NCBI RefSeq assembly: GCF_054482525.1
Contig: NZ_CM137006.1
Strand: one strand, 5' to 3'
DNA length: 64,000 nucleotides
Shown piece after piece: positions 52,236 to 54,954 of this stretch. A model generated the notes under the pieces. It saw nothing but the letters and a program-made list of their open reading frames with translations, was not told the DNA's origin and did not search any database. The position numbers were made by a program, and so were the translations under genes. Position 1 is the stretch's first letter. The number at the start of each line of letters is the position of its first letter.

Positions 52236-52994
52236 ATGGAAACACGTCGCGAAGAGCGTATCGGGCAGCTGCTGCAAGAATTAAAACGCAGCGATAAGTT
52301 ACATCTTAAAGACGCCGCCGCCCTGCTTGGGGTTTCGGAGATGACGATTCGTCGCGATCTGAACAACCACAGTGCGCCCGTCGTTTTGCTCGGCGGCTAT
52401 ATTGTTCTGGAACCGCGCAGCGCCAGCCATTACCTGTTAAGCGATCAAAAATCCCGCCTGGTGGAAGAAAAACGCCGGGCGGCAAAACTGGCTGCGACGC
52501 TGGTAGAACCCGATCAGACCCTCTTTTTTGACTGTGGCACCACCACGCCGTGGATTATTGAAGCGATTGATAATGAAATCCCTTTCACCGCCGTTTGTTA
52601 TTCGCTAAATACCTTTCTGGCACTGAAAGAGAAACCCCATTGCCGCGCGTTTCTTTGCGGTGGTGAATTTCACGCCAGCAACGCCATTTTCAAACCCATC
52701 GATTTTCAGCAAACGCTGAATAATTTTTGCCCGGATATCGCTTTTTATTCCGCTGCGGGCGTGCATGTCAGTAAAGGCGCTACCTGCTTTAATCTTGAAG
52801 AGTTGCCGGTAAAACACTGGGCCATGTCGATGGCGCAAAAGCATGTGCTGGTTGTCGACCACAGTAAATTTGGCAAGGTGCGTCCGGCGCGCATGGGTGA
52901 CCTGAAACGCTTTGATATTGTTGTGAGCGATTGTTGCCCGGAAGATGAGTATGTGAAGTACGCGCAGACGCAGCGTATTAAGTTGATGTATTAA
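52236..52994 (+). CDS. deoR: Deoxyribose operon repressor DeoR
   Basis: 252-aa DeoR-family HTH protein. Synteny. Confidence 0.85.
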   Translation: METRREERIGQLLQELKRSDKLHLKDAAALLGVSEMTIRRDLNNHSAPVVLLGGYIVLEPRSASHYLLSDQKSRLVEEKRRAAKLAATLVEPDQTLFFDCGTTTPWIIEAIDNEIPFTAVCYSLNTFLALKEKPHCRAFLCGGEFHASNAIFKPIDFQQTLNNFCPDIAFYSAAGVHVSKGATCFNLEELPVKHWAMSMAQKHVLVVDHSKFGKVRPARMGDLKRFDIVVSDCCPEDEYVKYAQTQRIKLMY

Positions 52995-53044
52995 CAACGA
53001 ATAAATATCCTCCGGCATAGCCGGAGGTTTTTCAAATGCGCCTA

Positions 53045-53750
53045 TAAGGCTCTCTTACCAGCCGCGCCCTAACAGGCGCACACGATCTGACATTTGCATC
53101 CAACTTCGTTACTTACGGCCCGTAAACGGGCTGCCCGGATAGGGAATCGATAACTGCTCTCCCATTTTATCCTCTTCAAGCTGGTGCTTTATGTAATCCT
53201 GTATCTTCGCCGTGTTCTTACCCACCGTATCGACGTAGTACCCTCTGCACCAGAACTCCCTGTTCCTGTATTTGAATTTCAAATCACCAAACTGCTCGTA
53301 AAGCATCAGACTGCTTTTCCCTTTCAGATATCCCATAAAGCCGGATACGCTCATTTTGGGCGGGATCTCCACAAGCATATGGATATGATCTGCACAGCAT
53401 TCAGCTTCCAGAATCCGTACACTTTTCCACTCACACAGCTTTCTCAAAATACTGCCTATTGCTCTACGCTTCTCTCTGTAGAACACCTGTCTTCGGTATT
53501 TTGGCGCAAAAACTATGTGATATTTACAGTTCCATCGGGTGTGCGCTAAGCTCTTTTCGTTCCCCATTGGGACCCCCTTTTGATTTCTTGTTTGACACTT
53601 GCAGTTGCCAGACCGCAAGGTGTTTTAACAAATCAAAAGGGGTTTTAATAACTGGCTTAAAGCTGAAAGCTTTCCGGAACCCCCAGCCTAGCTGGGGGTT
53701 TTCTGTGCACAATAACCGGATGACGTTTCGCGCCATCCGGCTATCAGAAG
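53045..53750 (-). mobile_element. IS200 (IS200/IS605 family) insertion between deoR and dacC
   Basis: Complete Y1 HUH transposase gene flanked by about 60-180 bp of structured DNA, including the hairpin AACCCCCAGCCTAGCTGGGGGTT upstream of tnpA. Element ends are approximate. Confidence 0.65.
53109..53567 (-). CDS. tnpA: IS200 transposase TnpA (Y1 HUH)
   Basis: 152 aa from MGNEKSLAHTRWNCKYHIVFAPKYRR with HxH motif ADHIHML and C-terminal catalytic tyrosine region. Near-identical to IS200 TnpA as I recall it. Confidence 0.85.
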   Translation of the reverse strand: MGNEKSLAHTRWNCKYHIVFAPKYRRQVFYREKRRAIGSILRKLCEWKSVRILEAECCADHIHMLVEIPPKMSVSGFMGYLKGKSSLMLYEQFGDLKFKYRNREFWCRGYYVDTVGKNTAKIQDYIKHQLEEDKMGEQLSIPYPGSPFTGRK

Positions 53751-53751
53751 A

Positions 53752-54954
53752 TTAAGAGAACCAGCTGCCGAACCACTGATGGAATTTCATCATCACGAAA
53801 TCCCACATCCGACCAAAGAATCCGCCCTCTTCCACATTTTCCATCACGATTAGCGGACGCTGCTCAATGGATTTACCGTTAAGCTGGAAATCAATGGTGC
53901 CAACAACCTGACCTTTTTTCAGCGGTGCGGTAAGCTGCGGTTCCGTTAACGTGTAGCTCGCTTTCAGGTTTTTCAGCTGCCCACGCGGTATGGTCACTGA
54001 TCCCGCTTCGCCTGCCCCGAGATTCACTTCGCTCTTATCACCAAACCAGACGCGCTGAGTCACAAAGGTGGCATCAGGTTTAATTGGCGTCACGGTTTCA
54101 AAGAAGCGGAAACCCCAGGTCAATAATTTCTCAGACTCATTAAAACGGATACGGTCAGTTTTCGCACCCAGTACTACGGAGATCAAACGCATATCGCCCT
54201 GGGTAGCCGAAGCAACCAGATTATATCCCGCGCCTGCCGTGGTTCCTGTCTTCATGCCATCAACATTCAGATTGCTGCTCCACAGCAGACGGTTACGGTT
54301 AGGCTGACGAATTTTGTTGAAGGTGAACTCTTTCTCTTTATGAATGGCATACTCTTCCGGCACATCGTGGATCAATGCTTTACCCAGCAATGCCATATCG
54401 CGCGCGGTACTGAACTGCCCCGGCGCATCCAGACCGTGCACCGTCTGGAAGGTAGTGTTGGTCAGACCCAGTTTTTTGGCATAACCATTCATCAGACCAA
54501 TAAATGACTCCTGGCTCCCGGCAACGTAATCGGCCAGCGCAATACAGGCGTCATTACCGGACTGGATAATCACACCTTTGTTCAAGTCTGCCACCGAAAC
54601 CTGATCGCCCGGTTTGAGGAACATTACCGATGAACCACGCAGTGCCGGATTTCCCGTCGCCCAGGCATCTTTACCGACCGTCACCATATCGGTGAGTTTA
54701 ATCTTATCGGCCTTAAGCGCCTGCCCAACCACATAGCTGGTCATGATTTTAGTCAGGCTCGCGGGGTCCAGTTTCTCATCCGCATTGCCTTCTGCCAGCA
54801 CTTTACCGCTGGCGTAATCCATTAAAATCCATGCACGCGCATCCACGCTCGGCGCTTCAACGGTTTGTTCCGCCGCGAATGCCGTTGGGGCAAAAAGGAA
54901 TAAAAATGCAGAACCCGCTGCAAGACCACGAAGGAGAGAGGAGTATTGCGTCAT
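53752..54954 (-). CDS. dacC: D-alanyl-D-alanine carboxypeptidase DacC (PBP6)
   Basis: 400 aa from [17 protein letters not shown] with SxxK (SLTK) and SGN motifs. Confidence 0.85.

Follow-up and report, generated by a model that had tools for sequence, protein, structure and literature searches.

Results

An IS200C copy between deoR and dacC

The DNA analysed here, a 64-kb stretch that we call the window, carries an insertion sequence between two intact, convergent genes. On the plus strand, deoR (52236-52994, 252 aa) ends with its stop codon at 52992-52994, 5 bp from the right end of the insertion sequence. On the minus strand, dacC (53752-54954) is co-oriented with the element and has its stop codon 41 bp upstream of the element's left end. 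The intergenic region measures 757 bp here versus 46 bp in K-12 MG1655 and PCN033, and positions 53000-53710, read on the minus strand, constitute a full 711-bp IS200C. An initial annotation of this DNA had called an intact IS200 copy in the deoR–dacC intergenic region, near the 3′ end of dacC, and both the call and the location were borne out. The 711 bp are 100% identical to annotated IS200C elsewhere, with no mismatch to the copies in seven genomes examined, PCN033 and strain 7/2 among them, and complete E. coli genomes hold 1301 records with at least 99% identity to IS200C. Judged by this identity to annotated copies, chance is ruled out as the origin of an intact IS200 with its hairpin.

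In every respect that could be tested, the element agrees with IS200C (IS200/IS605 family, IS200 group). Its sole gene, tnpA, occupies element nucleotides 144-602, which leaves no space for a second gene within the 711 bp, and tnpB is absent. The ends GTGCACAGAA and ATATTTATT are unrelated to one another, so that the element has no terminal inverted repeats, and a subterminal hairpin lies at either end. The initial annotation had also named membership of a larger composite element as the outcome that would overturn its reading. We found a single left-end match and a single right-end match in the 64-kb window, with no second IS200 copy in it, and the flanks are collinear with those of empty-site genomes; a composite transposon was rejected.

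The tnpA reading frame (53109-53567, minus strand) encodes 152 amino acids plus a stop codon and is assigned by its open reading frame, Pfam and NCBIfam, as expected for the intact IS200-type TnpA of that length in the initial annotation. It matches Pfam Y1_Tnp with an E value of 3.8e-38 and the NCBIfam equivalog transpos_IS200 at 147.7 bits (cut-off 55). The HUH motif H61-I-H63, the catalytic Y125 and Q129 are all present, and a Y125F mutant of the Salmonella IS200 TnpA is catalytically dead (PMC4513863). Relatives among solved structures include 2EC2, 2F4F, the IS608 TnpA 2A6M and the ISDra2 TnpA 2XM3; the PDB matches gave E values of 4e-19 for IS608 and 2e-16 for ISDra2, and the remaining solved relatives are Sulfolobus IS200-like transposases. 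A search of the solved structures returned no complex of an IS200 TnpA with DNA. Transposition that depends on IS200 TnpA has been reported in E. coli (PMC4513863).

Exact boundaries and the empty site

The filled site minus the empty site, as determined from the window and empty-site genomes, is 711 bp. Read directly on the dacC-sense strand, the empty site of PCN033 is ...CATCCGGTTATT|CGTTGTTA..., and the 711 bp stand at the bar when the site is filled. The motif TTATT occurs both at the target and at the right end of the element, which makes a single junction ambiguous by up to 5 bp. We compared 13 E. coli copies, namely that of the window and 12 others located at deoD, glcA, lacZ-lacY, pqqU-mcbR, the prophage gene lom (in two genomes), fdnI-yddM, a plasmid gene, pheP-ybdG, tkt, wzzB-hisIE, an ST131 locus and htpG-adk. 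All share the same 711-bp unit, 5′-GTGCACAGAA...ATATTTATT-3′, starting GTGCAC. Their upstream pentamers vary (TTATT, TTTTT, TCATT, TAATT and TCTTT) and their downstream flanks are unrelated. The boundary is resolved because the 12 other copies combine varied upstream pentamers with the same right end, and the comparison with IS200 ends that the initial annotation had proposed is thereby settled in favour of ends shared by all 13 copies.

On the minus strand, the complete IS200C (53000-53710) accordingly runs from the terminal 10 nt of the left end, GTGCACAGAA (53701-53710, a boundary taken from the copy comparison), to the terminal nonamer of the right end, ATATTTATT (53000-53008), which is invariant in the 13 E. 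coli copies despite their differing downstream flanks. The cleavage site at the right end lies after TTATT. Other copies have TTTTT, TCATT or TAATT upstream and nonetheless TTATT at the right end, so by sequence comparison TTATT stands at both junctions of the window copy because target and right end happen to agree, and no duplication is involved. The 711-bp element is the entire difference between empty and filled sites, with no target-site duplication. Of the extent originally given to the insertion, 53000-53751, the start at 53000 is exact; the element stops at 53710, 41 bp short of the proposed end, and 53711-53751 are native bases present in empty sites.

These native bases hold the target. 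The pentamer TTATT (53711-53715, minus strand), also found in the empty site of PCN033, is abutted by the left end of the element and belongs to a hairpin at 53712-53744 (minus strand; GC core 53716-53740; fold -11.7 kcal/mol, z -5.4) that K-12 and PCN033 also carry in their empty sites. The intergenic region has no other native structure. On the dacC-sense strand TTATTCGTTGTT comes after the stem, and for this reason the hairpin looks like the dacC terminator. We also considered a REP sequence, and rejected it: MG1655 carries no REP annotation here, and the structure behaves as a gene-end hairpin with a T-tail.

The right end supplies a terminator-like hairpin next to deoR

The subterminal hairpin of the right end, CCTCCGGC-TAT-GCCGGAGG (53009-53027, minus strand; fold -10 kcal/mol), reads on the plus strand as CCTCCGGC-ATA-GCCGGAGG followed by TTTTT at 53028-53032, and a terminator-like scan matched it on both strands. 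The initial annotation had taken this hairpin and its T-run for a deoR terminator flanking the element, with the insertion sequence lying between it and dacC and filling 53000-53751. The appeal of that anatomy is easy to see, as 53009-53032, read in the direction of deoR, obtains a good score as an intrinsic terminator (an 8-bp stem with seven GC pairs, then TTTTT) and the hairpin lies 14 nt past the deoR stop codon. It is missing, however, from the empty sites of K-12 and PCN033, and it is base-for-base the same in every IS200C and IS1541 copy examined, at unrelated loci. These two observations identify 53009-53032 as part of the element, namely the right end of IS200 itself. Since 53711-53751 exist in empty sites, the insertion sequence does not extend to 53751 either. 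The comparison of empty and filled sites refutes a native deoR terminator at 53009-53032, and we give the earlier anatomy virtually no chance of being right. For annotation, the case is a caution that a mobile element can own a terminator-looking hairpin beside a stop codon.

Left end and leader of tnpA

The left end begins with GTGCACAGAA, followed by the hairpin AACCCCCAGC-TAG-GCTGGGGGTT (53678-53700, minus strand; DNA fold -11.7 kcal/mol), which corresponds to positions 1-23 of a match to Rfam STnc490. That match (RF01405; 53577-53700, minus strand) is full-length and scores 146.1 bits against a gathering score of 56 (E 3.5e-31). Overlapping it, a stem-loop in the 5′UTR (53574-53643, minus strand; fold -19.8 kcal/mol, z -6.2) covers the tnpA Shine-Dalgarno sequence AAGGGGGT. 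The characteristic upstream hairpin of the initial annotation is thus present at 53678-53700, with the 5′UTR stem-loop after it. In Salmonella IS200 the left-end hairpin, numbered nt 12-34, terminates transcription in both directions and thereby protects tnpA against transcription from outside, and the 5′UTR stem-loop has been described as sequestering the Shine-Dalgarno sequence (PMC4513863). From the Salmonella description of a 90-nt RNA, a putative art200 can be placed at 53559-53648 on the plus strand (PMC4513863). Silencing of tnpA in Salmonella IS200 involves the bidirectional terminator of the left end, the sequestering stem-loop, the antisense RNA art200 and Hfq (PMC4513863). Given the matching sequence elements, the IS200C copy of the window is probably kept nearly silent by its left-end terminator hairpin, its sequestering stem-loop and antisense art200.

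Among IS200-group left ends, G at nucleotide 1 and (G/C)AA before the hairpin are conserved, and nucleotides 3-7 are variable. The GAA of GTGCACAGAA forms, together with the next AA, an A-run 5′ of the left-end hairpin, which by analogy with IS608 is a candidate guide for the T-rich cleavage site. GAAAA precedes both hairpins of IS200C and both cleavage sites are T-rich, an arrangement that would fit the pairing of guide and cleavage site in this family.

A very recent insertion in this lineage

Our survey covered 5426 complete E. coli genomes; the source strain lies outside the collections searched, and its junctions come from one assembly. None of the 5426 genomes has an IS200 between deoR and dacC, and 5423 have a contiguous deoR–dacC empty site. 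As to the statement of the initial annotation that K-12 lacks IS200, our comparison covered the deoR–dacC site of K-12, which is empty. In STEC2018-607, an unrelated IS1A lies in the 3′ end of dacC. The 31-nt left-end junction CGTCATCCGGTTATTGTGCACAGAAAACCCC was found in no JGI metagenome contig. As for the element in general, 2063 of the 5426 genomes carry IS200C at 80% of its length or more, with as many as 35 matches in a single genome, and 2330 show no IS200 match.

The closest genomes, PCN033, SCU-102 and 19KM1776, are 100% identical to the window over 4 kb on each side of the insertion. For SCU-102 and 19KM1776, identity is 100.0% over 24,289 bp, which is the 25-kb query minus 711 bp. 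PCN033, the nearest relative, holds an identical IS200C copy at htpG-adk. The suggestion that the insertion is strain-specific therefore stands, both on the comparison of the locus across strains, in which the deoR–dacC site is free of IS200 in all 5426 genomes, and on the relatives that are identical over 24.3 kb and lack only the 711 bp. Because the copy is 100% identical to others, its flanks are free of SNPs and the filled site is absent elsewhere, the sequence comparison points to a very recent transposition in this clone. An identical resident IS200C copy would be the likely source.

Such an event is rare a priori because IS200 is reputed to be almost immobile (PMC4513863; bioRxiv 10.1101/2024.06.26.600842). 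We weighed two ways in which the locus could look as it does without a recent jump. Import by homologous recombination from a strain that already had IS200 between deoR and dacC draws some plausibility from the fact that E. coli recombines and that so many genomes (2063 of 5426) carry IS200C. Such a donor, however, appears neither in the 5426 complete genomes nor in the metagenome contigs, and 24.3 kb of flanking DNA that is 100.0% identical to empty-site relatives shows no imported SNPs; we regard import as very improbable. Slightly less probable still is an assembly artefact in which a repeat was put at the wrong locus. Copies of insertion sequences are a classic source of misassembly, but the insertion here is base-perfect, 711 bp with the flanking DNA neither lost nor duplicated, and its site obeys the target rule of the family exactly.

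Overall, we are highly confident that 53000-53710, on the minus strand, holds a full-length IS200C (IS200/IS605 family, IS200 group, tnpA only) that appears functional and that entered the convergent deoR–dacC region of this lineage very recently. It stands exactly 3′ of the T-tail TTATT of the dacC terminator-like hairpin, co-oriented with dacC, without target duplication and without loss of host DNA. A 100% identical copy at a site that is empty in 5423 genomes, relatives identical over 24 kb among them, gives direct evidence of continuing IS200 movement in natural E. coli. The insertion itself looks neutral, and its main use is as a clonal marker.

Target sites combine a hairpin with a T-rich pentamer

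The initial annotation had asked for the target site; the insertion proved to lie exactly at the T-tail of the dacC terminator-like hairpin, a point that the annotation itself had missed. To place this site among others, we searched one genome of each species for a perfect match to the 23 nt of the left-end hairpin, which gave at least 120 loci. These include Yersinia pestis IS1541 (about 50 copies), loci in Vibrio, Brenneria, Dickeya, Edwardsiella, Pluralibacter and Budvicia, and loci in metagenome-assembled genomes with labels such as Bacillota, Mailhella/Desulfovibrio and Oxalobacter. Adding the E. coli copies brought the set to 130 unique insertion sites. The same geometry, a GC hairpin followed by a T-rich pentamer that ends in TT and, next to it, the left end, was found at the 13 E. 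coli sites and at 130 IS200-group sites overall. Position -1 is T at 130 of 130 sites and position -2 at 129 of 130, and the commonest pentamers are TTTTT (69 sites) and TTATT (23).

A detector of perfect-stem hairpins recognized only 88 of the 130 sites and missed imperfect hairpins, including the window's own; it was replaced by folding energies with matched controls. With DNA parameters, the upstream 40 nt fold at -6 kcal/mol or lower at 97% of sites, versus 9% of other T-rich pentamers and 12% of random positions at the same loci. The median fold is -11.2 for sites and -2.4 for other T-rich pentamers (Mann-Whitney p 6e-74). We also reconstructed 50 empty sites and ranked the used position by hairpin energy against about eight alternative T-rich pentamers within 100 nt on either side. 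The used position came first in 39, second in 9 and third in 2, and the candidates that ranked better were all the other strand of that hairpin or of a neighbouring one. Head-to-tail tandems of IS1541, in which one copy directly follows the right-end hairpin and ATATTTATT of another, imply that the right end of the element is itself a target of the same shape. Of the 13 E. coli insertions, 12 lie behind a gene that runs in the same direction as the element and stops a few tens of bp short of its left end; the exception, the lacZ-lacY copy, is antisense to the operon yet still follows a hairpin plus TTATT. The insertion behind the T-tail of the dacC hairpin is a typical IS200-group target, and follows a rule rather than an accident. 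This regular geometry accounts for the insertion here and could be used to predict IS200 landing sites.

The tail of the dacC hairpin differs among E. coli lineages. It is TTATT in the PCN033 lineage, TTATA in K-12, ST131 EC958 and an O145 strain, and TAATA in Ecol_316; the PCN033-type 140-bp site occurs at 99% identity or more in 127 of 5424 records. The common alleles do not have the T that all 130 sites share at position -1, and on this basis they would be poor targets. This difference may plausibly explain why it was in this lineage that the insertion arose.

What produces the geometry can be read in two ways. IS200-group TnpA might pick its targets by shape as well as sequence, recognizing intrinsic-terminator-like single-stranded DNA (a GC hairpin and, 5-10 nt later, a T-rich tail ending TT) as a mimic of its own right end. 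Alternatively, TnpA would need just a T-rich pentamer, and purifying selection alone would leave those survivors that sit behind terminators. The latter gains from IS608, whose target is recognized solely through base pairing to a guide tetranucleotide, with no need for a target hairpin (PMC5934647), and from the convergent gene ends, which are neutral landing places. It is harder to reconcile with the about eight T-rich alternatives in equally neutral DNA, where the strongest hairpin of the neighbourhood always marks the one that was used, with the lacZ-lacY copy, which lies antisense inside an operon and is still beside a hairpin plus TTATT, and with tandem copies inserted after a hairpin-bearing right end. 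Selection as the only cause appears unlikely to us, and recognition of a right-end mimic is a tentative proposal that we put forward with low confidence. The hairpin association could also stem in part from selection, insertions behind terminators being harmless, and not from a preference of the enzyme. If recognition by shape were true, terminators genome-wide would be landing pads for the IS200 group, and one tail base, TTATT versus TTATA, would decide whether the dacC terminator is permissive.

Discussion

Odaert et al. are said to have proposed terminator-like stem-loops as hot spots of IS1541 in 1998. Terminator-like sequences are also enriched upstream of IS200/IS605 elements, where they were linked to the known internal terminator of the element (bioRxiv 10.1101/2025.07.22.666184). 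The association between terminator and target is not new, and the exact geometry and its reading as a right-end mimic amount to a modest refinement.

A mechanism for the insertion can be proposed from the better-known members of the family. As in IS608 and ISDra2, the Y1/HUH TnpA would excise the top strand as a single-stranded circle ("peel and paste"), which would then be pasted into single-stranded DNA on the 3′ side of a short target, with the left end adjoining it. For the IS200 group, the target would be a T-rich pentamer ending TT after a GC-rich hairpin, which has the shape of an intrinsic terminator and resembles the right end of the element, a GC hairpin followed by ATATTTATT. By the same analogy, these events would take place preferentially on the lagging-strand template. 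The plus strand of the window has a GC skew of -0.045, negative in seven of eight sub-windows, and because this skew is negative the active strand of the element is the G-rich one. Judged from GC skew, with origin and terminus outside the window, the active (top, minus) strand lies on the lagging-strand template, as the family leads one to expect.

Effects on the neighbouring genes are probably small. The question of polarity is moot because both genes end at the insertion site, and a polar effect is not expected. dacC retains its native hairpin and the first five bases of the T-tail, and any read-through from dacC would meet the terminator hairpin of the left end. In the deoR direction, the native dacC hairpin lacks a U-tract, and the right-end hairpin of the element with UUUUU now stands 14 nt past the stop codon; deoR termination may, if anything, be tighter than before the insertion.

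Compared with known systems, the element shares with RAYT/TnpA-REP transposases (REPtrons) the Y1/HUH fold and an association with GC-rich extragenic hairpins. RAYTs, however, are single-copy and fixed in place, whereas IS200C occurs in many copies (as many as 35 in one genome) and close relatives have none at this site. We rejected a RAYT/REPtron assignment, as TnpA scores 32.2 bits against NCBIfam REP_Tyr_transpos (cut-off 80), the element is multicopy and its flank holds a single terminator-like hairpin. IS608 of Helicobacter pylori and ISDra2 of Deinococcus, the mechanistic models of the IS200/IS605 family, have a homologous TnpA. Like IS200C, they have subterminal hairpins and lack inverted repeats, they insert 3′ of a short target next to the left end without duplicating it, and they favour the lagging-strand template. 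Unlike the IS200 group, they carry tnpB, use the specific targets TTAC and TTGAT, and have no known need for a target hairpin.

Within the group, Yersinia pestis IS1541 has the exact 23-mer of the left-end hairpin, the right-end hairpin with ATATTTATT and the same target geometry, but is 710 bp long, has a left end starting GTGCCCAGAA and reaches about 50 copies per genome, some in head-to-tail tandems. IS200 of Salmonella enterica LT2 (707 bp versus 711 bp here; PMC4513863) shares the single tnpA with Y125, the left-end terminator hairpin, the sequestering stem-loop and the art200/STnc490 region. The copy in the window has a few 5′UTR substitutions relative to the Rfam consensus, and Salmonella numbering starts one T earlier, so that the hairpin at nt 12-34 there is at 11-33 here. 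Closest of all is IS200C of E. coli (the RefSeq/PGAP name; TnpA WP_000526135.1), with the same 711 bp, the same TnpA and the same ends, from which the present copy differs only in location: the element is of a known kind, and its site is new and strain-specific.

Polymorphism and interruption of the deoR–dacC site

The T-tail of the native terminator-like dacC hairpin (window 53711-53715) is polymorphic in E. coli (compared at loci L001, L136, L137 and L138): the PCN033 lineage has TTATT, whereas K-12, EC958 and an O145 strain carry TTATA and Ecol_316 carries TAATA. The five bases that follow the T-tail vary as well, reading CGTTG, CGTCA or CATCA. A match of ≥99% to the PCN033-type 140-bp site is limited to about 127 of the 5424 records. 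Besides the source strain, the deoR–dacC junction is interrupted only in E. coli STEC2018-607 (NZ_CP075697.1; 1 of 5424 genomes), in which an IS1A (L139 2604-3345) lies at the extreme 3′ end of dacC, inserted a few bp within the gene.

A copy of IS200C identical to that of the window was observed between lacZ and lacY in E. coli strain 7/2 (NZ_CP023820.1, L125 601-1311), oriented antisense to the operon. Since IS200C carries two terminator-like hairpins, this insertion could exert a polar effect on both lacY and lacA.

Ends of related elements

In Yersinia pestis NCTC5923, copies of the IS200-group relative IS1541 are arranged in head-to-tail tandem at five loci (L071, L070, L073, L087 and L117), with 710 bp separating the hairpins at L071. 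The right-end hairpin and ATATTTATT of one copy are followed directly by the left end of the next, with one extra T at the copy–copy junction in L087 and L117. This tandem arrangement fits a right end that serves as a target mimic.

The exact 23-nt IS200 left-end hairpin, AACCCCCAGCTAGGCTGGGGGTT, is also present in IS200-like elements of GTDB representative genomes labelled as distant phyla (within L005-L124), including an Oxalobacter MAG (L005-L008), a Bacillota MAG (L012-L024), Mailhella MAGs (L049-L059) and Saccharibacteria MAGs (L010 and L060). In these elements, the 10 nt 5′ of the hairpin and the sequence 3′ of it vary while the hairpin itself is exact, and many of the copies are located at contig ends. 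Such identity could stem from strong constraint on a hairpin to which TnpA binds, but broad horizontal transfer or contaminated genome bins could also account for it.

In Dickeya undicola (L056), a perfect 43-bp palindrome without a transposase surrounds the hairpin match at 697-719, in the order GTCTATAGAA, left-end hairpin, TTCTATAGAC, and is flanked on both sides by terminator-like hairpins that face each other. The palindrome may be a remnant, solo left end, or may instead have arisen by rearrangement between two opposed copies.

Strand of the STnc490 match

The Rfam STnc490 match (window 53577-53700) covers the left-end hairpin and the 5′UTR stem-loop on the tnpA-sense strand, whereas STnc490/art200 is described in the literature as antisense to the tnpA 5′UTR (PMC4513863). 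It therefore seems that the Rfam model does not describe the antisense RNA but either the sense-strand structures or the 5′ fragment of tnpA.
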